A stretch of DNA of 64,000 bases, from positions 4,836,001-4,900,000 of the forward strand of contig NW_027361688.1 of assembly GCF_039654945.1 (NCBI RefSeq). Reading direction: 5' to 3'. Both the position numbers and the translations under genes were made by a program. The first letter of the stretch is position 1, and each line of letters begins with the position of its first letter. The notes beneath the pieces were generated by a model that did no database searches, was not told the origin of the DNA, and saw nothing but the letters and a program-made list of their open reading frames with translations. Positions 16,132 through 48,083 of the stretch are shown in pieces. Source of the DNA: Dendrobates tinctorius (taxonomy: Eukaryota).

Positions 16132-16134
16132 TTA

Positions 16135-19893: not shown

Positions 19894-21222
19894 TTATTTT
19901 TTCAGCCAATTCTCCCACGTTGGCAGCGTAACATCAGGGATGTTACTGAATAAACCTTTGTTTTCTGACCTGGAGGAAGCAGAAGGACTATCAATTATCA
20001 TAAATGGCTCCCGAGCTACAGACGGTGCAGGGACCGAAGATGCTGTCGGTTGCTCTCTGGATGGGAACAAGCTCCACCTGTCTCTGTCACCATGAAATAG
20101 CCGATTTATCGGCAAGAAACTAAAGAATGAGGTATTGCCTCGTTCCTCAGATGCCATCTTGGTCGGATCTGTTAAATCATCAGAATTCTTTTCCACGCAA
20201 AACATTTTCTTCACTCCAGATATGATATCATCTAAATTTTTGTGTAAAGTGTCCGAGATCAATCCGTCATCCAGATCAGATACAATACGAGCCGTCACGT
20301 CACCTTCTGACTTATCTTCCCATAGTTTCCAGCTGGCCGATTCTCTTAGGAATTCCAAAGAGTCTTGTACGTTACATGTCATCTCCAAATGGCGGATCTT
20401 CTCTGTCAACTCTTCTGTCTTTGTCTCCAGGTTCTTGATTGCATCCGAGACTGACAGTGACACCTGCTCTTCTTGCCTAGAGATCTCACTCAGGACCTTC
20501 TTCTCCAAGTTGTCCAGTTGGGTCCTCATGTCTGCAAACAAGGTGGCAACTGTCTCTGTTAGATGACTTGCTTTTCCTTGCGCCTCTCTTCTGTGATCCT
20601 GTAGACACTTGACCCTTTTGTCAGTCTCTTTCCTTTTTATGGTCATTTCCTGCAGAACACTCCTCAGGAGATCTTTCTCCGTCTTAGAGGCCTCATCCAG
20701 CATCTCCACCTGGTGTTTTCTGTGGCCACCAAAGTAGCAGCTGGAACAGATTGGTGTAGCATCTTCTAAGCAGTAATACTCCAAGAGCTCCTTATGGGTA
20801 GAACATTTTCTATTCTCCAGAGAAGTGCTGGGATCAGATAAGACGTGTTCTGCTGCCTTGCTGTGAACTCTCAGGTGTTTATCACACAGAGAAGCTTCAC
20901 ACATCAGACAGGATTTGACAGCAGGTACCGGAGAGTCCACGCAGTAAGTGCAGCAGATCCCACTTTCAGTCTGTGTCGATGGAGTAAACAGGAAATTCTC
21001 CATAATGTTACGTAGAGCTATATTCCTCATCAGTGTCGGCCGCTCCAGAAACTCTTCTCTGCAATCAGGACAGGAATAAACTCCAGACCCGTCCTGTGTA
21101 TCCAGCACACGATCAATACAGACCCGGCAGAAGTTGTGTCCACATGTCAGCGTTACAGGATCTCTAAAAATGTCCAAACAGATGGAACAGTCGAGCTCGT
21201 CTCTCAGAACCGCAGACGCCAT
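19894..21222 (-). CDS. Intronless TRIM E3 ligase (RING, B-box1, B-box2, coiled coil; TRIM25/finTRIM-like), no PRY/SPRY; divergent paralogue
   Basis: C3HC4 RING CSICLDIFRDPVTLTCGHNFCRVC...CPDC, B-box1 CTYC...CLMCEASLCDKH...H, B-box2 CSTH...C...CSSC...H..H, then coiled coil. Likely start MASAVLRDEL at 21222 by homology to the paralogues (the ORF is open from 21264). Confidence 0.9.
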   Translation of the reverse strand: MASAVLRDELDCSICLDIFRDPVTLTCGHNFCRVCIDRVLDTQDGSGVYSCPDCREEFLERPTLMRNIALRNIMENFLFTPSTQTESGICCTYCVDSPVPAVKSCLMCEASLCDKHLRVHSKAAEHVLSDPSTSLENRKCSTHKELLEYYCLEDATPICSSCYFGGHRKHQVEMLDEASKTEKDLLRSVLQEMTIKRKETDKRVKCLQDHRREAQGKASHLTETVATLFADMRTQLDNLEKKVLSEISRQEEQVSLSVSDAIKNLETKTEELTEKIRHLEMTCNVQDSLEFLRESASWKLWEDKSEGDVTARIVSDLDDGLISDTLHKNLDDIISGVKKMFCVEKNSDDLTDPTKMASEERGNTSFFSFLPINRLFHGDRDRWSLFPSREQPTASSVPAPSVAREPFMIIDSPSASSRSENKGLFSNIPDVTLPTWENWLKK

Positions 21223-22003
21223 GACTTCCAGTGCGAAGGAAAACATTGCACCTCTCAGGTGCACACCCTATTCCACGCCTGTGTGGTTTCCAAATAAACC
21301 CTGACCTTTGTTCTGTGCTCAGCTCATAATAAACCGGTTTGTCGGCCTGCAAGATTTGTGTGTGGATCTCTTGTGGAGAACATAAATGTTTATTTCCTTT
21401 TGATCTGCTTGATTTAAGGTTCATATAGACATTCGGTCCAATCTTAGATTGCAAGGCACGAATTCGCTGAGGGTCTCCCGATCTAATTGTGACATCCTCA
21501 TAGAAAGACATGAAGCCGTCATGCTTTGGTCAGCGGCCTGTCCTTGCATTGTGATCCGAGACGGTACGGATTGGCACGGAGGTCTGCATGAGACCTTAGG
21601 CTGGCACACAATTGAGGGGCTGAGTTTAATTAAAGGGGCAAAACTTAAGAGCATCGTCCCCTTTCAGAATATCACAATCCTTGGGGTCTGTTTATTTAAA
21701 AAAAAATGGCATTTATTCACCATCGTCAAGTCTAGTACAGAGTGTCCGCTCACACTGTCTGGTATTGGTTGAAGATCTGACATCACGTCGACAGCGTGGC
21801 AGCCAATCGGTGAGCTCAGCGGCTCTGAGTGTGGTGCTCCGTCTACATCGGCACAGCCAATGGCTACAACGCTATCGACGTGAAGTTAGCCTTTCACACA
21901 ATAGAAGACTGGCAACAGTGTTGGAGACTCATCGCAGAACAGTTGGGTTGAGCTCCTGCTGTAGATAGTTGTTTTATGGCCTAGGAGGAGGACGATCTCT
22001 ATA

Positions 22004-22203
22004 AGGGCACAGTCAGATGGGCATAAAAATGGGACCAAGATCGGACCCGCAATGCTCAGACTGGTCAGCCGGTCTCCCAACCCGAGCGTGACAACTGCAT
22101 AGAATTAGATGAAGATGTCAGGCTCGAGGAGGGAGTCCCGCCGGCCAGTCCGAGCATTGTCTTCTGATCTCGGTCCAATTTATATGACTGTCCGACTGAG
22201 CCC
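22004..22203. mobile_element. Degenerate palindromic MITE, same family as 22721-22910
   Basis: TIR-like GGGCACAGTCAGA ... TCCGACTGAGCCC with TAA flanks; shares GCAATGCTC, GAGCGTGACA.CTGCATAGAA and GCCGGCCAGTCCGAGCATTG with the next element. Confidence 0.65.
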
Positions 22204-22720
22204 TAACAGTGTTAGGGCCTCAAAAAATAATCCCAAGCATTGGCTACAGAGTTTCTGGTTTGTACGGAGCACCAACAAAACATGTGGGTGTTTTGCAAAG
22301 ATGACCTCAAAGTCTAGACACCTTCTGAAGAAACCGGTAAAGAAATGATCTCTGATGACCCCATTGTGGCCCATTGTTGAGGAGCCAACGGCAGAGACCT
22401 TCAGGAAAATTTGCACAGGTCGAACTGCCCTACTAGTTATCTGACTTTTCATATCCTGTACATCCCTTTTCCTCTCAATCTGAAATCTTTAAGGACCTCA
22501 ACATTCAGGATTTAAAGGGATTGTTCTAGAATCTATTTTCACTGTAGGCTAATAACCTCTCTAAAGTGAACCACCCAAGCCTTCAGATATTTTCTTACTC
22601 CAGCTCCTTCAGAATTGTGTCTCTCTGCCCGGGGGGTGAAGTGGGCGAAGGTCCTTAAATGCTTCCCATGTGACCACTGTGAACTACATTTCCCACAACC
22701 ACCATTTCCCACAACCTGTG

Positions 22721-22910
22721 CCCTACGGGCGCAGTCAGATGGCCGTATAACATGGACGACGATCGCATCGCAATGCTCGGACTGGCCGGCGACTCTCAGG
22801 ACGCGAGCGTGACAGCTGCATAGAAGTGGTAGGAAGAGCTGCCGGCCAGTCCGAGCATTGCGATGCGATCGTCGTCCATGTTATACGGCCATCTGACTGC
22901 GCCTGTAGGG
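22721..22910. mobile_element. Hairpin MITE with 70-bp arms
   Basis: 22721-22790 is the reverse complement of 22841-22910 with one mismatch; 50-nt loop. Confidence 0.85.
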
Positions 22911-23369
22911 TGAGTGGACGCCGCCGCTTAATCTACATCCGAGAAAAACGGTCCTGTTTTGCTGATCAGACGTTGATCACTTTTTTCAAAGGTGGAGTGA
23001 AAACAACACCAAAATGTTTGTCCACCTTCTCTGCTTTGTCAGTCTGTGAAAATCGGATGTCATCCGAGTGCGGGCCGATATTTTCCATGGAACCATAGAC
23101 TTGGATTGCTGATTTTGATCCGACACCAAAGAAAAAATTGGACATGCGCACGGCCCCATAGAATAACGTGGGTACGAATGAGAATCACAGGGAGCACTCA
23201 TCCGATATAATCGGGGGCGCGCACCAGCCCAGATGGTGACATTCCTTGGGTCAGCAGTTGCCAATATCACCTGCTTAAAAAAACATGTGAAAAAAGCAGA
23301 AATCAGCTCTCCTGTCCAGGTACACGACAAAATACTACAGTAATAGCAGTAGTCTAAACCCCAGCCGGC

Positions 23370-23572
23370 ATTGCTTTATTAATCCAGTAGTATAAAAGGC
23401 ACAAAAAATGGTTGAACACAACAGCACAAAACTGACCTGACAAAGGACCGTGAAGGTCTGAAATATGGTGCCTGCGAGCGCAGCGGATATTTTCTGGTTT
23501 TTTTTTTCATTTTTGCACTGCTCTGTTCAACTATTTTTTGTGCCTTTTATACTACTGGATCAATAAAGCAAT
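23370..23572. repeat. 49-bp inverted repeat downstream of TRIM (present in all four cassettes); possibly a Penelope-like remnant
   Basis: 23370-23418 versus 23524-23572 are reverse complements with two mismatches; each arm carries AATAAA on its own strand. Confidence 0.8.
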
Positions 23573-23916
23573 TCTTCTAAGAAGATGCGAGCGCCGGCTA
23601 TCGTTTGGACTGTTGCTTGGAAAGATGTTTATAGCAAATTTACTTAAAAATTGCTGAAAATTAGAAACAAAAATATAGTAAATTACTTAACTTTTATTTA
23701 TGAGCAAATATAACACATTAGATATTACCGGCATGGTCAATTACACCTAGAGTGAACCTCCTATATGTGGCCCCCCGGCATCAGGAGAGGCGAGGGCCCG
23801 TACACCTGCTCTGTATAAATGAGGGGCCTACACTAATCTTTAGGGATATGTTATTAAAATTATGCAAACTAGACAAATCGGCAGTATGGGAAAAAAAAAC
23901 AAAGCAATTTTTATTC

Positions 23917-25155
23917 CTACTTATAAAAACCATAAAAATTATTTTCTAGATAACCCATAGAAGTAGCTGCTATGTTTGGCATTGGTGGTTTTTGCGGAAT
24001 AGTAACCTGTTTCGGTTTGGCTTCAGTCCTCTTCTTATTTTCGACAGCTGAAGCCAAAGACAATTTGTCTAATCTTATACTAAGATCGTTACTTCCCTTC
24101 ACATAAAATTTTGACATTGATTCAGTCAAAATACTAAGTAATCCCATGTGTAACTTATTAGACATCACCGCCACATCCAGGTCATCTCCATCATGGGGCA
24201 GCTTATCATGTCCCCCTGTGTCCTCATCCCCTCCCTCCTTCTTAGGATCACACAAGTCACCAATATCTGGATCCTGTAGGACAGTCAGTGGATCCGCCAT
24301 GTTACACAGCTCCTCAATGTGTCTCATCTTTCTGGACAGCTCGTCCTTCTTTATTTCCAGCTGATGGATCAGAGTAGACAGTGACAGCGACATCTTCTCT
24401 TCCTGCCTGGAGATCTCACTCAGGATACTCTTCTCCAGGTCGTCCACCCGTCTCCTGATGTCTGTACACAGGGCAGTCACTTTCCCCGCTTGTTCAGCTG
24501 CTTTTTCTTGAGCTTTTCTCCTCTGTTCCTCCAGACTCTTGACTTGTTCCTCAGTCTTCTTTCTCTTTGTGGTCAATTTCTGGTGAACATTTCTCAGTTT
24601 CTCCTTCTTCTTCTCTGAGGCCTCATCCAGCGTCTCCACCCGGTGTCCTCGATGTTCTCCGGCCAGACTGCAGGACACACAGATACAAGAATCGTCCTCA
24701 GTGCAGTAATATTCCAGGATCTTCTTATGGACAGAACATTTCCTTTTCTCCAGAGAAGTGCTGGGATCAGATAAGACGTGTTCTGCTGATTTGCTGTGAA
24801 CGTTTAGGTGTTTCTCACACAGAGAAGCCTCACAGTGTAGACAGGATTTCACAGCTGGTAGAGGAGAGTCCACACAGTAAGTGCAGCAGATCCCAGTGAT
24901 CTCCTTACTTGGTTCATCACGCTGGAGAGTCTTCATGATCTTACACAGAGCTAAACATCTCATCAGTGCCGGCCGCTCCTGAAACTCTTCTCTGCATTCC
25001 GGACAGGAATAAACTCCAGACCCGTCCTGTGTATCCAGCACACGACCAATACAGACCCGGCAGAAATTGTGTCCACATCTCAGCATTACAGGATCTGTAT
25101 AAGTGCTCAGACAGATGGAGCAGTCCAGCTGTTCTCTCAGATCGGTGGACGCCAT
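23917..25155 (-). CDS. Intronless RBCC TRIM E3 ligase lacking PRY/SPRY, cassette copy 1 (412 aa)
   Basis: RING CSICLSTYTDPVMLRCGHNFCRVC...CPEC, two B-boxes, coiled coil; Kozak-like GCCATGG; AATAAA just after the stop and again near 23693. Confidence 0.92.
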   Translation of the reverse strand: MASTDLREQLDCSICLSTYTDPVMLRCGHNFCRVCIGRVLDTQDGSGVYSCPECREEFQERPALMRCLALCKIMKTLQRDEPSKEITGICCTYCVDSPLPAVKSCLHCEASLCEKHLNVHSKSAEHVLSDPSTSLEKRKCSVHKKILEYYCTEDDSCICVSCSLAGEHRGHRVETLDEASEKKKEKLRNVHQKLTTKRKKTEEQVKSLEEQRRKAQEKAAEQAGKVTALCTDIRRRVDDLEKSILSEISRQEEKMSLSLSTLIHQLEIKKDELSRKMRHIEELCNMADPLTVLQDPDIGDLCDPKKEGGDEDTGGHDKLPHDGDDLDVAVMSNKLHMGLLSILTESMSKFYVKGSNDLSIRLDKLSLASAVENKKRTEAKPKQVTIPQKPPMPNIAATSMGYLENNFYGFYK

Positions 25156-25336
25156 GGCTGACAGAGGAAGAAAGAACTCAAACAGGAACTTTCTTTTTTT
25201 TTTTGTGCCTCTACGAAATGGGAGGTTGGGCGGAGGGGATACTCACATTAGTCTCCACCCTTGTTAGCTGTGCTGCTACGTTGAGAACGCAGCATACATA
25301 GGCGAAGCAACTATCGCATCAGGCTTTTCCGAGGGA

Positions 25337-25367
25337 GGCCTTTTGGCCAAGATCAAGTGTAGTATCT
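25337..25367 (+). pseudogene. U2 snRNA fragment (nt ~11-41), cassette 1
   Basis: GGCCTTTTGGCCAAGATCAAGTGTAGTATCT versus U2 GGCCTTTTGGCTAAGATCAAGTGTAGTATCT: 30/31 identical, including the branch-point recognition sequence GTAGTA. No Sm site or 3' stem-loops follow. Confidence 0.85.
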
Positions 25368-26051
25368 TTCGAGAAGGTGGCCTTCTCCTACAACCCTAGC
25401 ACATTGATACACAATACACACTGGGCTGGTGCACTTGCTAGTACGCCTGGTCGATGGCTGATAAAGTCATCTGGTGGAAACCATGGCCCCCCAGCATCGA
25501 AGTCACTAGGCTGGGTAAGTGTGAGGACTTATGGTGCAATGTGCCCCAGGAGTGGTCGCCCTGGTGGGAGTGTGAGCTTCCTTAGAGTGAGATCCCGGGT
25601 AAGTCTTGCATTCCATAGCACGCCTCACCTAGCCTTTCATACTTTCTTCAGCACCCCACCTATTCCTGGCCTTCAGATCGGGAAGGGGAATTTTTATAAA
25701 CCCAGTCGAAGGTCAGCTTTGGGTTGAGAAACCAACACGAGACAGGTCTCCCAGCTCCACTAGGGTGAAGAGTCTGGTTGAAGCACGAAAACAGCTGTCC
25801 GATCTTGGCTAGGAAGAGCATCGAAGATCCCTGACCCTTGCTGTGGCTTTCTGGTTTATTGGGGACCCTCTCCTCCGGGAAATGTGCACATGAATCCTTG
25901 CCTTGTGTGCTGTTTTGGTGTGACTTTGGTCACATTTTTCAGAGCCCTGGATGTTGCTTCAATCAAAAAATCAGACTTCAGGGGGCAGCGACCTGGTGTT
26001 TGACGAGGGGAAGATTGCAGAGGATGAAAGCCAGAGCGGCCATTACAGTTA

Positions 26052-26351
26052 GGCTGTGTTCACACACAGCGTTTTTTTAGCGGTATTTTTAGAGGTTTTG
26101 CCTATAAAACCGCTAAAATTAAGCTTCCCATTAATTTCGCATCACGGTAAAAAACGCAGCATGCTCATTAATTTCGCGGATTTTTCCGCATTTCTGGCTA
26201 GTTCAATGCGTTTTGAAAACGCGCCGGCAAAAAAAAACGCATCAAAAACGCGCAAAAGCCGCAACGAAAATGCAAAAAAAAAAAAGGCGTGGTTTCTGGG
26301 AAGGGAGTCAGGTTTTTGAGCAGAAATTTTCTGCTGCGTGTGCACTTAGCC
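26052..26351. mobile_element. Harbinger-type MITE within the cassette (all four copies)
   Basis: TTA|GGCTGTGTTCACAC ... GTGTGCACTTAGCC|TTA. Confidence 0.65.
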
Positions 26352-26689
26352 TTAGAAGGAATCTGTAGGTATTCACACACAGCTCTGCAGTGAGATCAGG
26401 AGAGCAGACTGTCAGCCATTACATGTCTCACACTAGTAACAGCCCGTCATTTACAATAATTTCTGGAGGCAGATTGTCGGGGTGATCTATGTCCCACCCG
26501 GAGATCTTAACAGCTCATTTACATACAAGAAAAACGTGAATTTCTCTGGAATTAAACACTGGATCTCAGATATCAAGCCGTCATTTTATTCAACTTCTAT
26601 GAGCTCCATGCCCATGTAGACGGCTGCACACTGATGGATAAGTGTGCAATTCCTCCTCCCTCTCTGCAGATCCTGTCAATGAATGCTTT

Positions 26690-28633
26690 CCGGAGCAGAG
26701 AGCGTCAGAGCACACAGCAAAGACCGGAGCAGAGAGCGTCAGAGCACACAGCAAAGACCGGAGCAGAGAGCGTCAGACCACACAGCAAAGACCGGAGCAG
26801 AGAGCGTCAAAGCACACAGCAAAGACCGGAGCAGAGAGCGTCAAAGCACACAGCAAAGACCGGAGCAGAGAGCGTCAGAGCCCACAGCAAAGACCGGAGC
26901 AGAGAGCGTCAGATCACACAGCAAAGACCGGAGCAGAGAGCGTCAGATCACACAGCAAAGACCGGAGCAGAGAGCGTCAGAGCACACAGCAAAGACCGGA
27001 GCAGAGAGCGTCAAAGCACACAGCAAAGACCGGAGCAGAGAGCGTCAGAGCCCACAGCAAAGACCGGAGCAGAGAGCGTCAGAGCACACAGCAAAGACCG
27101 GAGCAGAGAGCGTCAAAGCACACAGCAAAGACCGGAGCAGAGAGCGTCAGAGCCCACAGCAAAGACCGGAGCAGAGAGCGTCAGAGCACACAGCAAAGAC
27201 CGGAGCAGAGAGCGCCAGAGCACACAGCAAAGACCGGAGCAGAGAGCGTCAAAGCACACAGCAAAGACCGGAGCAGAGAGCGTCAAAGCACACAGCAAAG
27301 ACCGGAGCAGAGAGCGTCAGAGCCCACAGCAAAGACCGGAGCAGAGAGCGTCAGATCACACAGCAAAGACCGGAGCAGAGAGCGTCAGAGCCCACAGCAA
27401 AGACCGGAGCAGAGAGCGTCAGAGCACACAGCAAAGACCGGAGCAGAGAGCGTCAGATCACACAGCAAAGACCGGAGCAGAGAGCGTCAGAGCCCACAGC
27501 AAAGACCGGAGCAGAGAGCGTCAGAGCACACAGCAAAGACCAGAGCAGAGAGCGTCAGAGCCCACAGCAAAGACCGGAGCAGAGAGCGTCAGATCACACA
27601 GCAAAGACCGGAGCAGAGAGCGTCAGCGCCCACAGCAAAGACCGGAGCAGAGAGCGTCAGAGCACACAGCAAAGACCGGAGCAGAGAGCGTCAGAGCCCA
27701 CAGCAAAGACCGGAGCAGAGAGCGTCAGATCACACAGCAAAGACCGGAGCAGAGAGCGTCAGAGCCCACAGCAAAGCACAGAGCAGAGAGCGTCAGAGCA
27801 CACAGCAAAGACCGGAGCAGAGAGCGTCAGAGCACACAGCAAAGACCGGAGCAGAGAGCGTCAGATCACACAGCAAAGACCAGAGCAGAGAGCGTCAGAG
27901 CCCACAGCAAAGACCAGAGCAGAGAGCGTCAGAGCACACAGCAAAGACCGGAGCAGAGAGCGTCAGAGCCCACAGCAAAGCACAGAGCAGAGAGCGTCAG
28001 AGCCCACAGCAAAGACCGGAGCAGAGAGCGTCAAAGCACACAGCAAAGACCGGAGCAGAGAGCGTCAGAGCCCACAGCAAAGACCGGAGCAGAGAGCGTC
28101 AGATCACACAGCAAAGACCAGAGCAGAGAGCGTCAGAGCACACAGCAAAGACCGGAGCAGAGAGCGTCAAAGCACACAGCAAAGACCGGAGCAGAGAGCG
28201 TCAGAGCCCACAGCAAAGACCGGAGCAGAGAGCGTCAGAGCACACAGCAAAGACCGGAGCAGAGAGCGTCAGAGCCCACAGCAAAGACCGGAGCAGAGAG
28301 CGTCAGAGCACACAGCAAAGACCGGAGCAGAGAGCGTCAGAGCCCACAGCAAAGACCGGAGCAGAGAGCGTCAGAGCCCACAGCAAATACCGGAGCAGAG
28401 AGCGTCAGAGCACACAGCAAAGACCGGAGCAGAGAGCGTCAGAGCCCACAGCAAAGACCGGAGCAGAGAGCGTCAGAGCCCACAGCAAAGACCGGAGCAG
28501 AGAGCGTCAGAGCCCACAGCAAAGACCGGAGCAGAGAGCGTCAGAGCCCACAGCAAAGACCGGAGCAGAGAGCGTCAGAGCACAGCAATGTCCGGAGCAG
28601 AGAGCGTCAGAGCACACAGCAAAGACCGGAGCA
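26690..28633. repeat. 34-bp minisatellite (CGGAGCAGAGAGCGTCAGAGCACACAGCAAAGAC), array 1, ~57 units
   Basis: Direct tandem repeat. Confidence 0.97.
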
Positions 28634-29729
28634 TAGAAGTGGTAGGAAGAGCTGCCGGCCAGTCCGAGCACTGCGATGCGATCGTCGTCCATGTTATACG
28701 GCCATCTGACTGCGCCTGTAGGGTGAGTGGACGCCGCCGCTTAATCTACATCCGAGAAAAACGGTCCTGTTTCGCTGATCAGACGTTGATCACTTTTTTC
28801 AAAGGTGGAGAGAAAAAAACACCAAAATGTTTGTCCACCTTCTCTGCTTTGTCAGTCTGTGAAAATCGGATGTCATCCGAGTGCGGTCCGATATTTTCCA
28901 TGGAACCATAGACTTGGATTGCTGATTTTGATCCGACACCAAAGAAAAAATTGGACATGCGCACGGCCCCATAGAATAACGTGGGTACGAATGAGAATCA
29001 CAGGGAGCACTCATCCGATATAATCGGGGGCGCGCACCAGCCCAGATGGTGACATTCCTTGGGTCAGCAGTTGCCAATATCACCTGCTTAAAAAAACATG
29101 TGAAAAAAGCAGAAATCAGCTCTCCTGTCCAGGTACACGACAAAATACTACAGTAATAGCAGTAGTCTAAACCCCAGCCGGCATTGCTTTATTAATCCAG
29201 TAGTATAAAAGGCACAAAAAATGGTTGAACACAACAGCACAAAACTGACCTGACAAAGGACCGTGAAGGTCTGAAATATGGTGCCTGCGAGCGCAGCGGA
29301 TATTTTCTGGTTTTTTTTTTCATTTTTGCACTGCTCTGTTCAACTATTTTTTGTGCCTTTTATACTACTGGATCAATAAAGCAATTCTTCTAAGAAGATG
29401 CGAGCGCCGGCTATCGTTTGGACTGTTGCTTGGAAAGATGTTTATAGCAAATTTACTTAAAAATTGCTGAAAATTAGAAACAAAAATATAGTAAATTACT
29501 TAACTTTTATTTATGAGCAAATATAACACATTAGATATTACCGGCATAGTCAATTACACCTAGAGTGAACCTCCTATATGTGGCCCCCCGGCATCAGGAG
29601 AGGCGAGGGCCCGTACACCTGCTCTGTATAAATGAGGGGCCTACACTAATCTTTAGGGATATGTTATTAAAATTATGCAAACTAGACAAATCGGCAGTAT
29701 GGGAAAAAAAAACAAAGCAATTTTTATTC

Positions 29730-30968
29730 CTACTTATAAAAACCATAAAAATTATTTTCTAGATAACCCATAGAAGTAGCTGCTATGTTTGGCATTGGTG
29801 GTTTTTGCGGAATAGTAACCTGTTTCGGTTTGGCTTCAGTCCTCTTCTTATTTTCGACAGCTGAAGCCAAAGACAATTTGTCTAATCTTATACTAAGATC
29901 GTTACTTCCCTTCACATAAAATTTTGACATTGATTCAGTCAAAATACTAAGTAATCCCATGTGTAACTTATTAGACATCACCGCCACATCCAGGTCATCT
30001 CCATCATGGGGCAGCTTATCATGTCCCCCTGTGTCCTCATCCCCTCCCTCCTTCTTAGGATCACACAAGTCACCAATATCTGGATCCTGTAGGACAGTCA
30101 GTGGATCCGTCATGTTACACAGCTCCTCAATGTGTCTCATCTTCCTGGACAGCTCGTCCTTCTTTATTTCCAGCTGATGGATCAGAGTAGACAGTGACAG
30201 CGACATCTTCTCTTCCTGCCTGGAGATCTCACTCAGGATACTCTTCTCCAGGTCGTCCACCCGTCTCCTGATGTCTGTACACAGGGCAGTCACTTTCCCC
30301 GCTTGTTCAGCTGCTTTTTCTTGAGCTTTTCTCCTCTGTTCCTCCAGACTCTTGACTTGTTCCTCAGTCTTCTTTCTCTTTGTGGTCAATTTCTGGTGAA
30401 CATTTCTCAGTTTCTCCTTCTTCTTCTCTGAGGCCTCATCCAGCGTCTCCACCCGGTGTCCTCGATGTTCTCCGGCCAGACTGCAGGACACACAGATACA
30501 AGAATCGTCCTTAGTGCAGTAATATTCCAGGATCTTCTTATGGACAGAACATTTCCTTTTCTCCAGAGAAGTGCTGGGATCAGATAAGACGTGTTCTGCT
30601 GATTTGCTGTGAACGTTTAGGTGTTTCTCACACAGAGAAGCCTCACAGTGTAGACAGGATTTCACAGCTGGTAGAGGAGAGTCCACACAGAAAGTGCAGC
30701 AGATCCCGGTGGCCTCCTTACTTGGTTCATCACGCTGGAGAGTCTTCATGATCTTACACAGAGCTAAACATCTCATCAGTGCCGGCCGCTCCTGAAACTC
30801 TTCTCTGCATTCCGGACAGGAATAAACTCCAGACCCGTCCTGTGTATCCAGCACACGATCAATACAGACCCGGCAGAAGTTGTGTCCACATCTCAGCATT
30901 ACAGGATCTGTATAAGTGCTCAGACAGATGGAGCAGTCCAGCTGTTCTCTCAGATCGGTGGACGCCAT
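29730..30968 (-). CDS. Intronless RBCC TRIM lacking PRY/SPRY, cassette copy 2 (412 aa)
   Basis: Intact ORF; differs from copy 1 by G37D, I86A, Y93F, E153K and A287T. Confidence 0.92.
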   Translation of the reverse strand: MASTDLREQLDCSICLSTYTDPVMLRCGHNFCRVCIDRVLDTQDGSGVYSCPECREEFQERPALMRCLALCKIMKTLQRDEPSKEATGICCTFCVDSPLPAVKSCLHCEASLCEKHLNVHSKSAEHVLSDPSTSLEKRKCSVHKKILEYYCTKDDSCICVSCSLAGEHRGHRVETLDEASEKKKEKLRNVHQKLTTKRKKTEEQVKSLEEQRRKAQEKAAEQAGKVTALCTDIRRRVDDLEKSILSEISRQEEKMSLSLSTLIHQLEIKKDELSRKMRHIEELCNMTDPLTVLQDPDIGDLCDPKKEGGDEDTGGHDKLPHDGDDLDVAVMSNKLHMGLLSILTESMSKFYVKGSNDLSIRLDKLSLASAVENKKRTEAKPKQVTIPQKPPMPNIAATSMGYLENNFYGFYK

Positions 30969-37810: not shown

Positions 37811-37991
37811 GGCTGACAGAGGAAGAAAGAACTCAAACAGGAACTTTCTTTTTTTTTTTGTGCCTCTACGAAATGGGAGGTTGGGCGGAGGGGATACTCA
37901 CATTAGTCTCCACCCTTGTTAGCTGTGCTGCTACGTTGAGAACGCAGCATACATAGGCGAAGCAACTATCGCATCAGGCTTTTCCGAGGGA

Positions 37992-38022
37992 GGCCTTTTG
38001 GCCAAGATCAAGTGTAGTATCT
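37992..38022 (+). pseudogene. U2 snRNA fragment, cassette 3
   Basis: Same 31-mer as at 25337. Confidence 0.85.
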
Positions 38023-39344
38023 TTCGAGAAGGTGGCCTTCTCCTACAACCCTAGCACATTGATACACAATACACACTGGGCTGGTGCACTTGCTAGTACG
38101 CCTGGTCGATGGCTGATAAAGTCATCTGGTGGAAACCATGGCCCCCCAGCATCGAAGTCACAAGGCTGGGTAAGTGTGAGGACTTATGGTGCAATGTGCC
38201 CCAGGAGTGGTCGCCCTGGTGGGAGTGTGAGCTTCCTTAGAGTGAGATCCCGGGTAAGTCTTGCATTCCATAGCACGCCTCACCTAGCCTTTCATACTTT
38301 CTTGAGCACCCCACCTATTCCTGGCCTTCAGATCGGGAAGGGGAATTTTTATAAACCCAGTCGAAGGTCAGCTTTGGGTTGAGAAACCAACACGAGACAG
38401 GTCTCCCAGCTCCACTAGGGTGAAGAGTCTGGTTGAAGCACGAAAACAGCTGTCCGATCTTGGCTAGGAAGAGCATCGAAGATCCCTGACCCTTGCTGTG
38501 GCCTTCTGGTTTATTGGGGACCCTCTCCTCCGGGAAATGTGCACATGAATCCTTGCCTTGTGTGCTGTTTTGGTGTGACTTTGGTCACATTTTTCAGAGC
38601 CCTGGATGTTGCTTCAATCAAAAAATCAGACTTCAGGGGGCAGCGACCTGGTGTTTGACGAGGGGAAGATTGCAGAGGATGAAAGCCAGAGCGGCCATTA
38701 CAGTTAGGCTGTGTTCACACACAGCGTTTTTTTAGCGGTATTTTTAGAGGTTTTGCCTATAAAACCGCTAAAATTAAGCTTCCCATTAATTTCGCATCAC
38801 GGTAAAAAACGCAGCATGCTCATTAATTTCGCGGATTTTTCCGCATTTCTGGCTAGTTCAATGCGTTTTGAAAACGCGCCGGCAAAAAAAAACGCATCAA
38901 AAACGCGCAAAAGCCGCAACGAAAATGCAAAAAAAAAAAAGGCGTGGTTTCTGGGAAGGGAGTCAGGTTTTTGAGCAGAAATTTTCTGCTGCGTGTGCAC
39001 TTAGCCTTAGAAGGAATCTGTAGGTATTCACACACAGCTCTGCAGTGAGATCAGGAGAGCAGACTGTCAGCCATTACATGTCTCACACTAGTAACAGCCC
39101 GTCATTTACAATAATTTCTGGAGGCAGATTGTCGGGGAGATCTATGTCCCACCCGGAGATCTTAACAGCTCATTTACATACAAGAAAAACGTGAATTTCT
39201 CTGGAATTAAACACTGGATCTCAGATATCAAGCCGTCATTTTATTCAACTTCTATGAGCTCCATGCCCATGTAGACGGCTGCACACTGATGGATAAGTGT
39301 GCAATTCCTCCTCCCTCTCTGCAGATCCTGTCAATGAATGCTTT

Positions 39345-40948
39345 CCGGAGCAGAGAGCGTCAGAGCACACAGCAAAGACCGGAGCAGAGAGCGTCAGAGC
39401 ACACAGCAAAGACCGGAGCAGAGAGCGTCAGAGCACACAGCAAAGACCGGAGCAGAGAGCGTCAAAGCACACAGCAAAGACCGGAGCAGAGAGCGTCAAA
39501 GCACACAGCAAAGACCGGAGCAGAGAGCGTCAGAGCCCACAGCAAAGACCGGAGCAGAGAGCGTCAGATCACACAGCAAAGACCGGAGCAGAGAGCGTCA
39601 AAGCACACAGCAAAGACCGGAGCAGAGAGCGTCAGAGCACACAGCAAAGTACAGAGCAGAGAGCATCAGAGCCCACAGCAAAGACCGGAGCAGAGAGCGT
39701 CAGAGCACACAGCAAAGACCGGAGCAGAGAGCGTCAGAGCACACAGCAAAGACCGGAGCAGAGAGCGTCAGAGCACACAGCAAAGACCGGAGCAGAGAGC
39801 GTCAAAGCACACAGCAAAGACCGGAGCAGAGAGCGTCAAAGCACACAGCAAAGACCGGAGCAGAGAGCGTCAGAGCCCACAGCAAAGACCGGAGCAGAGA
39901 GCGTCAGATCACACAGCAAAGACCGGAGCAGAGAGCGTCAGATCACACAGCAAAGACCGGAGCAGAGAGCGTCAGAGCACACAGCAAAGACCGGAGCAGA
40001 GAGCGTCAAAGCACACAGCAAAGACCGGAGCAGAGAGCGTCAGAGCACACAGCAAAGACCGGAGCAGAGAGCGTCAAAGCACACAGCAAAGACCGGAGCA
40101 GAGAGCGTCAGAGCCCACAGCAAAGACCGGAGCAGAGAGCGTCAGAGCACACAGCAAAGACCGGAGCAGAGAGCGTCAGAGCACACAGCAAAGACCGGAG
40201 CAGAGAGCGTCAAAGCACACAGCAAAGACCGGAGCAGAGAGCGTCAAAGCACACAGCAAAGACCAGAGCAGAGAGCGTCAGAGCCCACAGCAAAGACCGG
40301 AGCAGAGAGCGTCAGATCACACAGCAAAGACCGGAGCAGAGAGCGTCAGAGCCCACAGCAAAGACCAGAGCAGAGAGCGTCAGAGCACACAGCAAAGACC
40401 GGAGCAGAGAGCGTCAGAGCCCACAGCAAAGCACAGAGCAGAGAGCGTCAGAGCCCACAGCAAAGACCGGAGCAGAGAGCGTCAAAGCACACAGCAAAGA
40501 CCGGAGCAGAGAGCGTCAGAGCCCACAGCAAAGACCGGAGCAGAGAGCGTCAGAGCACACAGCAAAGACCGGAGCAGAGAGCGTCAGATCACACAGCAAA
40601 GACCAGAGCAGAGAGCGTCAGAGCCCACAGCAAAGACCGGAGCAGAGAGCGTCAGAGCACACAGCAAAGACCGGAGCAGAGAGCGTCAGAGCCCACAGCA
40701 AAGACCGGAGCAGAGAGCGTCAGAGCACACAGCAAAGACCGGAGCAGAGAGCGTCAGAGCACACAGCAAAGACCGGAGCAGAGAGCGTCAGAGCACACAG
40801 CAAAGACCGGAGCAGAGAGCGTCAGAGCACAGCAATGTCCGGAGCAGAGAGCGTCAGAGCACACAGCAAAGACCGGAGCAGAGAGCGTCAGAGCACACAG
40901 CAAAGACCGGAGCAGAGAGCGTCAGAGCACACAGCAAAGACCGGAGCA
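39345..40948. repeat. 34-bp minisatellite array 3, ~47 units
   Basis: Direct tandem repeat. Confidence 0.97.
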
Positions 40949-42044
40949 TAGAAGTGGTAGGAAGAGCTGCCGGCCAGTCCGAGCATTGCGATGCGATCGT
41001 CGTCCATGTTATACGGCCATCTGACTGCGCCTGTAGGGTGAGTGGACGCCGCCGCTTAATCTACATCCGAGAAAAACGGTCCTGTTTTGCTGATCAGACG
41101 TTGATCACTTTTTTCAAAGGTGGAGAGAAAAAAACACCAAAATGTTTGTCCACCTTCTCTGCTTTGTCAGTCTGTGAAAATCGGATGTCATCCGAGTGCG
41201 GGCCGATATTTTCCATGGAACCATAGACTTGGATTGCTGATTTTGATCCGACACCAAAGAAAAAATTGGACATGCGCACGGCCCCATAGAATAACGTGGG
41301 TACGAATGAGAATCACAGGGAGCACTCATCCGATATAATCGGGGGCGCGCACCAGCCCAGATGGTGACATTCCTTGGGTCAGCAGTTGCCAATATCACCT
41401 GCTTAAAAAAACATGTGAAAAAAGCAGAAATCAGCTCTCCTGTCCAGGTACACGACAAAATACTACAGTAATAGCAGTAGTCTAAACCCCAGCCGGCATT
41501 GCTTTATTAATCCAGTAGTATAAAAGGCACAAAAAATGGTTGAACACAACAGCACAAAACTGACCTGACAAAGGACCGTGAAGGTCTGAAATATGGTGCC
41601 TGCGAGCGCAGCGGATATTTTCTGTTTTTTTTTTTCATTTTTGCACTGCTCTGTTCAACTATTTTTTGTGCCTTTTATACTACTGGATCAATAAAGCAAT
41701 TCTTCTAAGAAGATGCGAGCGCCGGCTATCGTTTGGACTGTTGCTTGGAAAGATGTTTATAGCAAATTTACTTAAAAATTGCTGAAAATTAGAAACAAAA
41801 ATATAGTAAATTACTTAACTTTTATTTATGAGCAAATATAACACATTAGATATTACCGGCATGGTCAATTACACCTAGAGTGAACCTCCTATATGTGGCC
41901 CCCCGGCATCAGGAGAGGCGAGGGCCCGTACACCTGCTCTGTATAAATGAGGGGCCTACACTAATCTTTAGGGATATGTTATTAAAATTATGCAAACTAG
42001 ACAAATCGGCAGTATGGGAAAAAAAAACAAAGCAATTTTTATTC

Positions 42045-43283
42045 CTACTTATAAAAACCATAAAAATTATTTTCTAGATAACCCATAGAAGTAGCTGCTA
42101 TGTTTGGCATTGGTGGTTTTTGCGGAATAGTAACCTGTTTCGGTTTGGCTTCAGTCCTCTTCTTATTTTCGACAGCTGAAGCCAAAGACAATTTGTCTAA
42201 TCTTATACTAAGATCGTTACTTCCCTTCACATAAAATTTTGACATTGATTCAGTCAAAATACTAAGTAATCCCATGTGTAACTTATTAGACATCACCGCC
42301 ACATCCAGGTCATCTCCATCATGGGGCAGCTTATCATGTCCCCCTGTGTCCTCATCCCCTCCCTCCTTCTTAGGATCACACAAGTCACCAATATCTGGAT
42401 CCTGTAGGACAGTCAGTGGATCCGTCATGTTACACAGCTCCTCAATGTGTCTCATCTTCCTGGACAGCTCGTCCTTCTTTATTTCCAGCTGATGGATCAG
42501 AGTAGACAGTGACAGCGACATCTTCTCTTCCTGCCTGGAGATCTCACTCAGGATACTCTTCTCCAGGTCGTCCACCCGTCTCCTGATGTCTGTACACAGG
42601 GCAGTCACTTTCCCCGCTTGTTCAGCTGCTTTTTCTTGAGCTTTTCTCCTCTGTTCCTCCAGACTCTTGACTTGTTCCTCAGTCTTCTTTCTCTTTGTGG
42701 TCAATTTCTGGTGAACATTTCTCAGTTTCTCCTTCTTCTTCTCTGAGGCCTCATCCAGCGTCTCCACCCGGTGTCCTCGATGTTCTCCGGCCAGACTGCA
42801 GGACACACAGATACAAGAATCGTCCTCAGTGCAGTAATATTCCAGGATCTTCTTATGGACAGAACATTTCCTTTTCTCCAGAGAAGTGCTGGGATCAGAT
42901 AAGACGTGTTCTGCTGATTTGCTGTGAACGTTTAGGTGTTTCTCACACAGAGAAGCCTCACAGTGTAGACAGGATTTCACAGCTGGTAGAGGAGAGTCCA
43001 CACAGAAAGTGCAGCAGATCCCGGTGGCCTCCTTACTTGGTTCATCACGCTGGAGAGTCTTCATGATCTTACACAGAGCTAAACATCTCATCAGTGCCGG
43101 CCGCTCCTGAAACTCTTCTCTGCATTCCGGACAGGAATAAACTCCAGACCCGTCCTGTGTATCCAGCACACGACCAATACAGACCCGGCAGAAGTTGTGT
43201 CCACATCTCAGCATTACAGGATCTGTATAAGTGCTCAGACAGATGGAGCAGTCCAGCTGTTCTCTCAGATCGGTGGACGCCAT
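42045..43283 (-). CDS. Intronless RBCC TRIM lacking PRY/SPRY, cassette copy 4 (412 aa)
   Basis: Intact ORF; differs from copy 1 by I86A, Y93F and A287T. Confidence 0.92.
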   Translation of the reverse strand: MASTDLREQLDCSICLSTYTDPVMLRCGHNFCRVCIGRVLDTQDGSGVYSCPECREEFQERPALMRCLALCKIMKTLQRDEPSKEATGICCTFCVDSPLPAVKSCLHCEASLCEKHLNVHSKSAEHVLSDPSTSLEKRKCSVHKKILEYYCTEDDSCICVSCSLAGEHRGHRVETLDEASEKKKEKLRNVHQKLTTKRKKTEEQVKSLEEQRRKAQEKAAEQAGKVTALCTDIRRRVDDLEKSILSEISRQEEKMSLSLSTLIHQLEIKKDELSRKMRHIEELCNMTDPLTVLQDPDIGDLCDPKKEGGDEDTGGHDKLPHDGDDLDVAVMSNKLHMGLLSILTESMSKFYVKGSNDLSIRLDKLSLASAVENKKRTEAKPKQVTIPQKPPMPNIAATSMGYLENNFYGFYK

Positions 43284-43467
43284 GGCTGACAGAGGAAGAA
43301 AGAACTCAAACAGGAACTTTCTTTCTTTTTTTTTTGTGCCTCTACGAAATGGGAGGTTGGGCGGAGGGGATACTCACATTAGTCTCCACCCTTGTTAGCT
43401 GTGCTGCTACGTTGAGAACGCAGCATACATAGGCGAAGCAACTATCGCATCAGGCTTTTCCGAGGGA

Positions 43468-43498
43468 GGCCTTTTGGCCAAGATCAAGTGTAGTATCT
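43468..43498 (+). pseudogene. U2 snRNA fragment, cassette 4
   Basis: Same 31-mer as at 25337. Confidence 0.85.
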
Positions 43499-44820
43499 TT
43501 CGAGAAGGTGGCCTTCTCCTACAACCCTAGCACATTGATACACAATACACACTGGGCTGGTGCACTTGCTAGTACGCCTGGCCGATGGCTGATAAAGTCA
43601 TCTGGTGGAAACCATGGCCCCCCAGCATCGAAGTCACTAGGCTGGGTAAGTGTGAGGACTTATGGTTGAATGTGCCCCAGGAGTGGTCGCCCTGGTGGGA
43701 GTGTGAGCTTCCTTAGAGTGAGATCCCGGGTAAGTCTTGCATTCCATAGCACGCCTCACCTAGCCTTTCATACTTTCTTCAGCACCCCACCTATTCCTGG
43801 CCTTCAGATCGGGAAGGGGAATTTTTATAAACCCAGTCGAAGGTCAGCTTTGGGTTGAGAAACCAACACGAGACAGGTCTCCCAGCTCCACTAGGGTGAA
43901 GAGTCTGGTTGAAGCACGAAAACAGCTGTCCGATCTTGGCTAGGAAGAGCATCGAAGATCCCTGACCCTTGCTGTGGCCTTCTGGTTTATTGGGGACCCT
44001 CTCCTCCGGGAAATGTGCACATGAATCCTTGCCTTGTGTGCTGTTTTGGTGTGACTTTGGTCACATTTTTCAGAGCCCTGGATGTTGCTTCAATCAAAAA
44101 ATCAGACTTCAGGGGGCAGCGACCTGGTGTTTGACGAGGGGAAGATTGCAGAGGATGAAAGCCAGGCGGCCATTACAGTTAGGCTGTGTTCACACACAGC
44201 GTTTTTTTAGCGGTATTTTTAGAGGTTTTGCCTATAAAACCGCTAAAATTAAGCTTCCCATTAATTTCGCATCACGGTAAAAAACGCAGCATGCTCATTA
44301 ATTTCGCGGATTTTTCCGCATTTCTGGCTAGTTCAATGCGTTTTGAAAACGCGCCGGCAAAAAAAAACGCATCAAAAACGCGCAAAAGCCGCAACGAAAA
44401 TGCAAAAAAAAAAAAAGGCGTGGTTTCTGGGAAGGGAGTCAGGTTTTTGAGCAGAAATTTTCTGCTGCGTGTGCACTTAGCCTTAGAAGGAATCTGTAGG
44501 TATTCACACACAGCTCTGCAGTGAGATCAGGAGAGCAGACTGTCAGCCATTACATGTCTCACACTAGTAACAGCCCGTCATTTACAATAATTTCTGGAGG
44601 CAGATTGTCGGGGAGATCTATGTCCCACCCGGAGATCTTAACAGCTCATTTACATACAAGAAAAACGTGAATTTCTCTGGAATTAAACACTGGATCTCAG
44701 ATATCAAGCCGTCATTTTATTCAACTTCTATGAGCTCCATGCCCATGTAGACGGCTGCACACTGATGGATAAGTGTGCAATTCCTCCTCCCTCTCTGCAG
44801 ATCCTGTCAATGAATGCTTT

Positions 44821-47800
44821 CCGGAGCAGAGAGCGTCAGAGCACACAGCAAAGACCGGAGCAGAGAGCGTCAGAGCACACAGCAAAGACCGGAGCAGAGA
44901 GCGTCAGAGCACACAGCAAAGACCGGAGCAGAGAGCGTCAGAGCACACAGCAAAGACCGGAGCAGAGAGCGTCAGAGCACACAGCAAAGACCGGAGCAGA
45001 GAGCGTCAGAGCACACAGCAAAGACCGGAGCAGAGAGCGTCAGAGCCCACAGCAAAGACCGGAGCAGAGAGCGTCAAAGCACACAGCAAAGACCGGAGCA
45101 GAGAGCGTCAAAGCACACAGCAAAGACCGGAGCAGAGAGCGTCAGAGCCCACAGCAAAGACCGGAGCAGAGAGCGTCAGAGCACACAGCAAAGACCGGAG
45201 CAGAGAGCGTCAGAGCACACAGCAAAGACCGGAGCAGAGAGCGTCAGAGCACACAGCAAAGTACAGAGCAGAGAGCGTCAGAGCACACAGCAAAGACCGG
45301 AGCAGAGAGTGTCAGAGCACACAGCAAAGACCGGAGCAGAGAGCGTCAGAGCACACAGCAAAGACCGGAGCAGAGAGTGTCAGAGCACACAGCAAAGACC
45401 GGAGCAGAGAGCGTCAGAGCCCACAGCAAAGACCGGAGCAGAGAGTGTCAGAGCACACAGCAAAGACCGGAGCAGAGAGCGTCAGAGCACACAGCAAAGA
45501 CCGGAGCAGAGAGCGTCAGAGCACACAGCAAAGACCGGAGCAGAGAGCGTCAGAGCACACAGCAAAGACCGGAGCAGAGAGCGTCAGAGCACACAGCAAA
45601 GACCGGAGCAGAGAGCGTCAAAGCACACAGCAAAGCACAGAGCAGAGAGCGTCAGAGCCCACAGCAAAGACCGGAGCAGAGAGCGTCAGATCCCACAGCA
45701 AAGACCGGAGCAGAGAGCGTCAGAGCACACAGCAAAGACCGGAGCAGAGAGTGTCAGAGCACACAGCAAAGACCGGAGCAGAGAGCGTCAGAGCACACAG
45801 CAAAGACCGGAGCAGAGAGCGTCAGAGCACACAGCAAAGACCGGAGCAGAGAGCGTCAGAGCACACAGCAAAGACCGGAGCAGAGAGCGTCAGAGCACAC
45901 AGCAAAGACCGGAGCAGAGAGCGTCAAAGCACACAGCAAAGACCGGAGCAGAGAGCGTCAGAGCCCACAGCAAAGACCGGAGCAGAGAGCGTCAGATCCC
46001 ACAGCAAAGACCGGAGCAGAGAGCGTCAGATCACACAGCAAAGACCGGAGCAGAGAGCGTCAGAGCACACAGCAAAGACCGGAGCAGAGAGCGTCAGAGA
46101 ACACAGCAAAGACCGGAGCAGAGAGCGTCAGAGCACACAGCAAAGACCGGAGCAGAGAGCGTCAGAGCACACAGCAAAGACCGGAGCAGAGAGCGTCAGA
46201 GCACACAGCAAAGACCGGAGCAGAGAGCGTCAGAGCACACAGCAAAGACCGGAGCAGAGAGTGTCAGAGCACACAGCAAAGACCGGAGCAGAGAGCGTCA
46301 GAGCACACAGCAAAGTACAGAGCAGAGAGCGTCAGAGCCCACAGCAAAGACCAGAGCAGAGAGCGTCAGAGCACACAGCAAAGTCCGGAGCAGAGAGCGT
46401 CAGAGCACACAGCAAAGACCGGAGCAGAGAGCGTCAGAGCACACAGCAACGTCCGGAGCAGAGAGCGTCAGAGAACACAGCAAAGACCGGAGCAGAGAGC
46501 GTCAGAGCACACAGCAAAGACCGGAGCAGAGAGCGTCAGAGCACACAGCAAAGACCGGAGCAGAGAGCGTCAGAGCACACAGCAAAGACCGGAGCAGAGA
46601 GCGTCAGAGCACACAGCAACGTCCGGAGCAGAGAGCGTCAGAGAACACAGCAAAGACCGGAGCAGAGAGCGTCAGAGCACACAGCAAAGACCGGAGCAGA
46701 GAGCGTCAGAGCACACAGCAAAGACCGGAGCAGAGAGCGTCAGAGCACACAGCAAAGACCGGAGCAGAGAGCGTCAGAGCACACAGCAAAGACCGGAGCA
46801 GAGAGCGTCAGAGTACACAGCAAAGACCAGAGCATAGAGCGTCAGAGCACACAGCAAAGACCAGAGCAGAGAGCGTCAGAGCACACAGCAAAGACCGGAG
46901 CAGAGAGCGTCAGAGCACACAGCAAAGACCGGAGCAGAGAGCGTCAGAGCACACAGCAAAGTACAGAGCAGAGAGCGTCAGAGCCCACAGCAAAGACCGG
47001 AGCAGAGAGTGTCAGAGCACACAGCAAAGACCGGAGCAGAGAGCGTCAGAGCACACAGCAAAGTACAGAGCAGAGAGCGTCAGAGCCCACAGCAAAGTCC
47101 GGAGCAGAGAGCGTCAGAGCACACAGCAAAGACCGGAGCAGAGAGCGTCAGAGCACACAGCAACGTCCGGAGCAGAGAGCATCAGAGAACACAGCAAAGA
47201 CCGGAGCAGAGAGCGTCAGAGCACACAGCAAAGACCGGAGCAGAGAGCGTCAGAGCACACAGCAAAGACCGGAGCAGAGAGCGTCAGAGCACACAGCAAC
47301 GTCCGGAGCAGAGAGCGGAGCAGAGAGCGTCAGAGCACACAGCAAAGACCGGAGCAGAGAGCGTCAGAGCACACAGCAAAGACCGGAGCAGAGAGCGTCA
47401 GATCACACAGCAAAGACCAGAGCAGAGAGCGTCAGAGCACAGCAAAGACCGGAGCAGAGAGCATCAGAGCACAAAGCAACGTCCGGAGCAGAGAGCGTCA
47501 GAGCACAAAGCAACGTCCGGAGCAGAGAGCGTCAGAGAACACAGCAAAGACTGGAGCAGAGAGCGTCAGAGCCCACAGCAAAGACTGGAGCAGAGAGCGT
47601 CAGAGCACACAGCAAAGACCGGAGCAGAGAGCGTCAGAGTACACAGCAAAGACCGGAGCAGAGAGCGTCAGAGTACACAGCAAAGACAGGAGCAGAGAGC
47701 GTCAGAGCCCACAGCAAAGACCAGAGCAGAGAGCGTCAGAGCCCACAGCAAAGACCAGAGCAGAGAGCGTCAGAGCACACAGCAGAGACCAGAGCAGAGA

Positions 47801-48083
47801 GCGTCAGAGCACACAGCAAAGACCGGAGCAGAGAGCGTCAGAGCACACAGCAAAGACAGGAGCAGAGAGCGTCAGAGCCCACAGCAAAGACCAGAGCAGA
47901 GAGCGTCAGAGCACACAGCAGAGACCAGAGCAGAGAGCGTCAGAGCACACAGCAAAGACCGGAGCAGAGAGCTTCAGAGCCCACAGCAAAGACCAGAGCA
48001 GAGAGCGTCAGAGCACACAGCAGAGACCAGAGCAGAGAGCGTCAGAGCCCACAGCAGAGACCAGAGCAGAGAGCGTCAGAGAA
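44821..48083. repeat. 34-bp minisatellite array 4, ~96 units, more diverged distally, interrupted by CR1 (last unit resumes at ~49770-49803)
   Basis: Direct tandem repeat; GAACACAGCAAAGACCGGAGCAGAGAGCGCCAG follows the CR1 tail. Confidence 0.97.

Follow-up and report, generated by a model that had tools for sequence, protein, structure and literature searches.

Two genes of the TRIM type between TMEM140 and CYREN

We analyzed a stretch of 64,000 nucleotides from the frog Dendrobates tinctorius (positions 4,836,001-4,900,000 of contig NW_027361688.1), hereafter the window, in whose numbering all coordinates are given unless contig positions are stated. TMEM140 on the forward strand (recognized by PF14985) and CYREN on the reverse strand (PF15325) converge in it, and between them, all on the reverse strand, lie five open reading frames (ORFs) of the RING-B-box1-B-box2-coiled-coil (RBCC) type, which we call T1 to T5. 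T1 runs from an ATG at 21222 to a stop at 19894 and encodes 442 residues, namely a RING, two B-boxes, a coiled coil and an L2 helix followed by a tail of ~100 residues. T2 (23917-25155), T3 (29730-30968), T4 (36572-37810) and T5 (42045-43283) encode 412 residues each and, like T1, lack a SPRY domain. An earlier reading made from the letters of the window without database searches, here called the sequence-only reading, had taken all five for a single recent and lineage-specific array of TRIM ligases. They are instead two different genes: T1, which is old and single-copy, and a younger gene that was copied in tandem to give T2-T5.

The domain content and the placement that the sequence-only reading gave to the ORFs hold up. 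In all five, Pfam matches to the RING and B-box lie above the cut-off and the TRIM_CC match lies below it, and the zinc-ligand patterns of the RING, B-box1 and B-box2 are whole. With these domains in order and full ligand sets, T1-T5 are predicted TRIM/RBCC proteins whose E3 and dimerization modules, i.e., zinc ligands, coiled coil and L2 helix, appear intact as had been claimed. The structure model of T1 has a long helix at residues 168-296 with a predicted local distance difference test (pLDDT) score of 74-90 along most of its length. The term intronless, also used in the earlier reading, is established for the coding sequence alone and does not carry beyond it, because an acceptor-like site (a pyrimidine tract and CAG) lies 2 bases 5' of the ATG in each of T2-T5. 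For T2 this predicted site, common to the paralogues, is at 25158-25176 on the reverse strand, and no spliced contig of those described below was seen there.

T1 is an old gene with a conserved terminus

The T1 tail occurs once in the genome. A search with T1 residues 320-442 gave seven matches among 82 candidates, T1 itself included, all of them SPRY-less and 428-444 residues long. Identity to T1 is 92% in Ranitomeya imitator, 85% in Anomaloglossus, 74% in Bufo gargarizans, 71% in Rhinoderma, 69% in Eleutherodactylus and 65% in Leptodactylus, and cluster members supplied further orthologues from R. variabilis and Phyllobates. NCBI labels the orthologues 'E3 ubiquitin/ISG15 ligase TRIM25-like'. 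They span five frog families with the stop at the same position, and for this single-copy gene the claim of a wholly recent, lineage-specific array does not stand.

Among the seven T1 sequences, invariant columns number 54 of 80 in the RING, 47 of 85 in the B-boxes and 47 of 121 in the coiled coil, then 2 of 23 in the linker before L2, 18 of 27 in L2 (residues 317-343), 19 of 74 in the proximal tail and 17 of 25 in the last 25 residues. Judged by these columns, the terminus equals the RING in invariance. The tail is rich in serine and proline and is built as a drifting spacer followed by a fixed terminus, where residues 420-442 (19897-19965, reverse strand) form a candidate binding motif, K-x-L-F-S..P-D-V-T-L-P-x-W-x-x-W-L-K-K. 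The L2 helix, which the structure model places with low confidence at residues 319-341, lies at 20200-20268 on the same strand. T1 has stayed a single gene, and has kept this motif at its end, since hyloid frogs first radiated; PMC13107284 dates crown Hyloidea to 126 million years ago and cites estimates near 66 million years ago. Of the two genes, T1 is the conserved one and tells us more, a point that the earlier reading missed.

T2-T5 are young tandem copies

A search with the T2-type tail gave two matches among 11 candidates, and the cluster of T2-type proteins holds three from the window, two records from R. variabilis and one from R. imitator. The number of T2-type records thus varies by species (four here, two in R. 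variabilis and one in R. imitator), a difference between species that agrees with the sequence-only reading. Phyllobates also has a T2-type gene, within XP_073505333.1 (Phyllobates terribilis), an 867-residue model that fuses the T2 and T1 orthologues, adjacent and in the same order; the fusion is probably an annotation artefact. The accession numbers of T2-type records run next to those of T1 orthologues (XP_069619269/70; XP_077122904/6/7), a hint that they share a neighbourhood. Among the sequences found, the T2 gene is restricted to dendrobatids, and it is for T2-T5 alone that the label 'lineage-specific' holds.

The four copies lie in four tandem units at 22818-28630, 28631-35464, 35465-40945 and 40946-48083, each with 3.87 kb of unique sequence and a 34-bp minisatellite of 57 copies in unit 1 (26690-28637), 87 in unit 2 (32502-35471), 47 in unit 3 (39345-40952) and ~96 in unit 4 (44821-48081), the most divergent array and the one that holds the outer end. 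Differences in the unique sequence amount to 10-21 substitutions per 3.87 kb (0.26-0.54%) in a mosaic pattern, which bears out the recent tandem amplification put forward for T2-T5. At all three internal junctions, which are identical, the minisatellite runs into the loop of a hairpin element (22721-22910) that resembles a miniature inverted-repeat transposable element; the loop contains the duplication junction at 22818 and shares a GCA with the minisatellite. One duplication at this 3-bp microhomology with later unequal crossing-over would fit the four copies. A simple doubled read was rejected as their source since all four minisatellite arrays differ, and no second copy of the T2-type tail was found elsewhere in the assembly. 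Upstream of each T2-type ORF lies an interspersed repeat of ~635 bp (25337-25974 for T2) with 47 matches, 43 of them outside the window.

DNA identity to the SPRY-bearing paralogues, 85-89% across the RBCC of T2 and 76-81% for T1, ends sharply in T2 near 24147, inside the L2 helix, and the DNA of the T2-type tail beyond it (23917-24147, reverse strand) occurs in the four copies only. Past this break, identity over 50 residues (92-94% for Ranitomeya, 82% for Phyllobates) equals that of the RBCC, and the last ~26 residues are 46-62% identical and variable in length. The sequence-only reading had allowed that new tails might retarget these proteins, and with the fixed terminus of T1 and these well-kept 50 residues of T2 the tails do look selected.

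Absence of PRY/SPRY and transcript evidence

Pfam found PRY/SPRY in none of the five ORFs, and a tblastn search of the window with the PRY-SPRY domains of three paralogues found no remnant, the best E being 0.76. Three TRIM queries, among them a full-length protein that includes SPRY, found no TRIM match in ten 10-kb stretches making up the 50 kb on either side. The loss of SPRY that had been read from the ORFs is upheld by these searches. Neither in T1-T5 nor in an exon farther downstream did they detect the C-terminal PRY-SPRY/B30.2 that marks class C-IV TRIM proteins.

Contigs from 4 of 22 listed sequencing runs were aligned to window positions 12000-26680, with 32 pieces and 15 joints reported; rare isoforms drop out of such contigs. 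We read the four runs as RNA on three grounds: each amounts to 51-97 million letters of contig sequence, two intergenic bins are nearly bare (0-0.65 at 21310-21799 and 0-1.12 at 25230-25719) and two TMEM140 contigs start exactly at an acceptor. The T1 stop is spanned by unspliced contigs in all four runs and coverage reaches at least 17204, which gives a 3' untranslated region (UTR) at 17204-19893 on the reverse strand that may reach ~15300. If a contig at 15293-15886 is T1's, the contigs of TMEM140 and of the T1 3' UTR come within ~1 kb of each other (14378-15300). The T2-type stop is also spanned unspliced in four of four runs, and contig ends at 23683, 23704 and 23736 in three of them cluster around an AATAAA at 23693-23698 on the reverse strand. 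Unspliced contigs over both stops argue against splicing onto a SPRY exon. As such, the check on transcription and on such splicing that had been suggested with the sequence-only reading comes out in its favor, to the extent that the runs are RNA. A kept RBCC, the absence of B30.2 and expression, as taken from these runs, are three features that T1-T5 share with TRIM5gamma/TRIM5delta.

TRIM clusters on the contig and the origin of T1 and T2

A genome search with T2 gave at least 101 matches, 86 of them on the same contig, five of these being the ORFs of the window. Two megabase clusters of single-coding-exon TRIM genes flank the locus at contig 0.26-3.40 Mb and 6.66-14.47 Mb and account for at least 81 matches, a setting that the earlier reading overlooked. 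Among the closest 26 paralogues, 23 have a whole PRY-SPRY, two stop within the SPRY and one is broken early. When 10 hand-picked short-frame loci were inspected, seven retained 72-77% identical SPRY sequence past the stop, two had none in ~4 kb and one was ambiguous. Because seven of these 10 broken paralogues keep SPRY sequence behind the stop, T1-T5 with no such remnant are set apart from ordinary decay; the marks of a pseudogene, i.e., a premature stop with a SPRY remnant behind it and no conservation, were not found in them.

Some SPRY-bearing paralogues vary in their spacers. In L053 (contig 370500-375000), L061 and L065 an in-frame acidic 9-residue repeat, a coding minisatellite, alters the length of the spacer between the coiled coil and the L2 helix, and one ORF reaches 996 residues. 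L054, L058 and L026 carry inserts of 45-55 residues between the L2 helix and PRY, and L054 has an internal duplication within the SPRY as well. New tails might arise from L2-PRY inserts of this kind, though no significant likeness was found. That the tails stem from the long linkers which SPRY-bearing paralogues carry was rejected after a hidden Markov model of the T1 tail matched weakly in the L2 region only (best E 0.008) and one of the T2 tail matched nothing, in a set of 49 protein rows that included the five window ORFs.

We built a tree of the RBCC region from 34 rows with a midpoint root, leaving out 16 near-duplicate or gappy rows and drawing the paralogues from this genome alone. Eight T1 rows form one branch with 100/100 support, Rhinoderma being the first to split, separate from the 23 SPRY-bearing paralogues and three T2 rows. 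T2 is nested among the paralogues at 6.7-14.5 Mb with modest support (89/93). A shared origin of T1 and T2 is contradicted by this best tree, yet an approximately unbiased (AU) test did not reject a single T1+T2 clade (p 0.214); because of that result two independent losses of SPRY are likely, not proven. Derivation of the T2 tail from the T1 tail was rejected, with 6 of 30 residues identical and no DNA likeness. T2 may also combine an older 3' end with an RBCC acquired by conversion.

Neighboring genes and repeats

The coding exon of TMEM140 lies at 12782-13413 on the forward strand with its ATG at 12805, and two contigs that start right at its acceptor carry 46 and 128 additional letters. 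A site like an interferon-stimulated response element (ISRE) at 11917-11928 on the same strand (2 matches against 0.12 expected) is joined by a second GAAA-NN-GAAA site, both within 11917-11978, just 5' of the probable 5' UTR exon of TMEM140. These sites fit the listing of TMEM140 as a human interferon-stimulated gene in PMC9718408.

Frog CYREN is compact, with three coding exons (~57901-57788, ~57699-57634 and ~57496-57296) in ~600 bp of the reverse strand (57296-57901), the PF15325 match on the last exon and an AATAAA right after the stop. Both its N-terminal R-x-x-P-x-W and its C-terminal XLF-like motif are kept. Farther out on the contig are a cytosolic carboxypeptidase of the AGBL type (4.798 Mb), a LisH/WD-repeat gene that we read as WDR91 (4.906-4.919 Mb) and an SLC23-type permease (4.936-4.938 Mb), in an order that agrees with the human locus. 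Two fragments of long interspersed nuclear elements lie on the forward strand: one at 48080-49686, which we take to be CR1-like, abuts the last 34-bp minisatellite, and the other, at 54200-56942, has an RVT_1 match. Long unrelated minisatellites with units of 43, 36/35, 28, 20 and 30 bp (724-2668, 4182-11672, 50114-53625 and 57952-64000) occupy introns and flanks and create many spurious long ORFs.

Proposed function of the SPRY-less genes

The SPRY-less pair are probably working regulators, not broken leftovers. In both, likeness to the SPRY-bearing family extends through the L2 helix and a few residues beyond, where they diverge from it. According to PMC5667893, the L2 helix packs on the center of the antiparallel dimer and is retained in TRIMCyp, and since L2 is kept here the tails would begin where a PRY-SPRY would sit. 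T1 would be an active dimeric E3 with two tails emerging from the center of the dimer, and its drifting S/P-rich spacer with a fixed terminus suggests a linear binding motif. The last ~23 residues would bind a conserved host partner, a substrate or a membrane, so that a short linear motif would stand in for the lost recognition domain. T2-T5 may heterodimerize with SPRY-bearing paralogues, cutting their avidity or speeding their turnover, and the extra copies would raise the dose. Such attenuation is suggested for T2-T5 by an unstable terminus and by a coiled coil 80-83% identical to those of the SPRY-bearing paralogues compared; it fits T1, at 50-52%, less well. In PMC1906832, TRIM5 isoforms without B30.2 act as dominant negatives through the coiled coil, and an immune role is suggested by the family background in PMC2657112 and PMC12262214 and by the ISRE-like site at TMEM140. 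That the T1 motif recruits some conserved partner other than Ku and that T2-T5 dampen the SPRY-bearing paralogues is a proposal in which we place equal parts of belief and doubt.

Several results besides the AU test weigh against this proposal. None of the four runs is recorded as RNA, their RNA nature being our inference, and the contigs do not distinguish which of T2-T5 they came from. The T1 tail has no Pfam match, and a scan of 1.84 billion representatives returned only the T1 cluster and one other match, which proved to be a translated repeat and was rejected as a distant relative. In the ESM Atlas the top scores of the two tails were 0.77 and 0.79, under 0.8 and leads only. The structure model of T1 is poor (mean pLDDT 48, tail below 50, seven sequences), which makes the disorder and terminal helix of the tail weak predictions, and T1 conservation was measured as protein identity. 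The tail search returned no hylid, ranoid or pipid T1; loss, an annotation gap and the limits of the search are each possible. No exact ISRE pattern was matched upstream of the T1-T5 ORFs, whose first exons were not located. Lastly, 7 of the 11 variable codons among T2-T5 are non-synonymous, none of them in the tail, so no purifying selection is visible on the extra copies.

This last observation also favors the alternative that we consider the strongest, though we would not bet on it: the genes work and their four-fold amplification is neutral, a unit that bears the minisatellite having slipped once before unequal exchange, and the extra copies contribute nothing to the dose, perhaps for want of a promoter or first exon. 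The identical junctions from minisatellite to hairpin loop, the mosaic differences between units, the abundance of tandem repeats in the window and the failure to locate a first exon for T2-T5 all agree with it. Against it, the two T2-type records of R. variabilis end differently, which may mean that duplication happened more than once; none of the four copies has a stop or frameshift, a point of low weight in copies this young. It is rather unlikely that T1, too, is only a scaffold or attenuator of other TRIMs. Its motif would then recruit no substrate but fold onto the coiled coil of T1 itself or govern where the protein goes or how stable it is. The tail without a domain and the retained L2 would suit such a role, and short finTRIMs without B30.2 are expressed in fish (PMC2657112), but the divergence of the T1 coiled coil makes heterodimers less likely and the RING and B-box ligands are whole and conserved. 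We find it less plausible still that the assembly is inflated, with two haplotypes of a two-copy array placed in tandem. The unit distances fall within the allelic range and the closest pairs are units 1 and 3 (14 changes) and units 2 and 4 (10 changes), yet the four minisatellite arrays differ in length and variant codes, so each haplotype must contain two or more distinct copies; the window is gap-free and the T2-type tail is not duplicated elsewhere.

Two other explanations have very little in their favor. We consider it highly improbable that the T1 terminus binds Ku80 as a non-canonical module, so that T1, whose gene neighbors that of the Ku adaptor CYREN, would be a ligase drawn to Ku/DNA-PK. 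K-G-L-F-S and L-P-x-W in the tail resemble the XLF-like motif and the Ku-binding motif (KBM) as defined in PMC4831024 (see also PMC8224183 and two bioRxiv preprints), motifs of the kind that CYREN carries, and the two patterns occur together in 0.04% of tail shuffles, with the patterns picked after the tail was seen. Nevertheless, the minimal KBM core R-x-x-P-x-W is present in none of the nine T1 orthologues, all of which lack the defining arginine, so that T1 lacks an APLF-like motif, and the tail has no basic patch ahead of L-P-x-W. K-x-L-F-S is invariant in seven of seven T1 sequences, but it is internal, 16 residues inside, with few basic residues, whereas an XLF-like motif comprises a basic patch and a conserved Phe and is usually C-terminal; the two motifs also stand in reverse order compared with WRN. 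The gene neighborhood by itself is no link. The fuller version, in which SPRY was swapped early in hyloids for a Ku80-binding motif, T1 links DNA-end sensing to TRIM control and T2-T5 are a dose-tuned brake on the SPRY-bearing family, strikes us as equally far-fetched. It is harder yet to credit that the ORFs are first exons spliced to a PRY/SPRY exon, read-through from CYREN or silent pseudogenes. The loss of rare isoforms from contigs and the 15 reported joints leave it some room, but no SPRY was found in the window or its flanks, unspliced contigs cross both stops with T2 ending at its AATAAA, the T1 stop is identical in five families and CYREN carries an AATAAA of its own.

Relation to known TRIM systems

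The parent family of T1-T5 is that of the frog TRIM25-like/TRIM16-like single-coding-exon RBCC-PRYSPRY genes, with which they have in common the RING, two B-boxes, coiled coil and L2 and from which they differ in having new tails and no PRY-SPRY or remnant of it. T1 has one-to-one orthologues, whereas the sampled SPRY-bearing paralogues of this genome cluster together. TRIM5gamma and TRIM5delta (PMC1906832) resemble T1-T5 as RBCC proteins without B30.2, and by analogy heteromultimers with full-length relatives would be possible in principle; those are splice isoforms of one gene, in contrast to the separate genes T1 and T2-T5, one of them tandemly amplified. In TRIMCyp (PMC1906832, PMC5667893), as in T1, the recognition domain was replaced after a retained L2, but TRIMCyp gained a folded retroposed cyclophilin, and the tail of T1 is S/P-rich, modelled with low confidence, and closes with a short motif. 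The finTRIM (PMC2657112) and harbiTRIM (PMC12262214) genes likewise form large, volatile, recombining clusters with intronless members (medaka) and expressed B30.2-less forms. finTRIM is teleost-specific, without tetrapod orthologues (PMC2657112), and makes its short forms by splicing or as alleles, so these frog genes fall outside it; the accessible text of the two accounts describes no member that lacks SPRY, has been conserved for long and bears a new motif.

Mammalian TRIM proteins without a defined C-terminal domain form class C-V, e.g., TRIM8, TRIM31 and TRIM40. Like them, T1 has an RBCC followed by an unclassified tail, and the T1-tail search returned no mammalian protein. In the open-access literature we found no publication on the T1-T5 genes. 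TRIMs without SPRY, swapped tails and volatile clusters of TRIM genes have precedents; what is new is a long-conserved SPRY-less TRIM with a fixed terminal motif beside a younger, amplified one.

Frog TRIM clusters turn over fast, and their SPRY-less members are easily written off as debris. For ~66 million years or more T1 has remained single-copy in five families, with a 23-residue terminus as fixed as the RING, which makes it a small, testable handle on how an E3 ligase may gain a new target without a folded domain. Only if an immune role is true would these genes be relevant to amphibian antiviral and antifungal immunity. Together, T1-T5 bear on how a frog with at least 80 related ligases on one contig restrains them.

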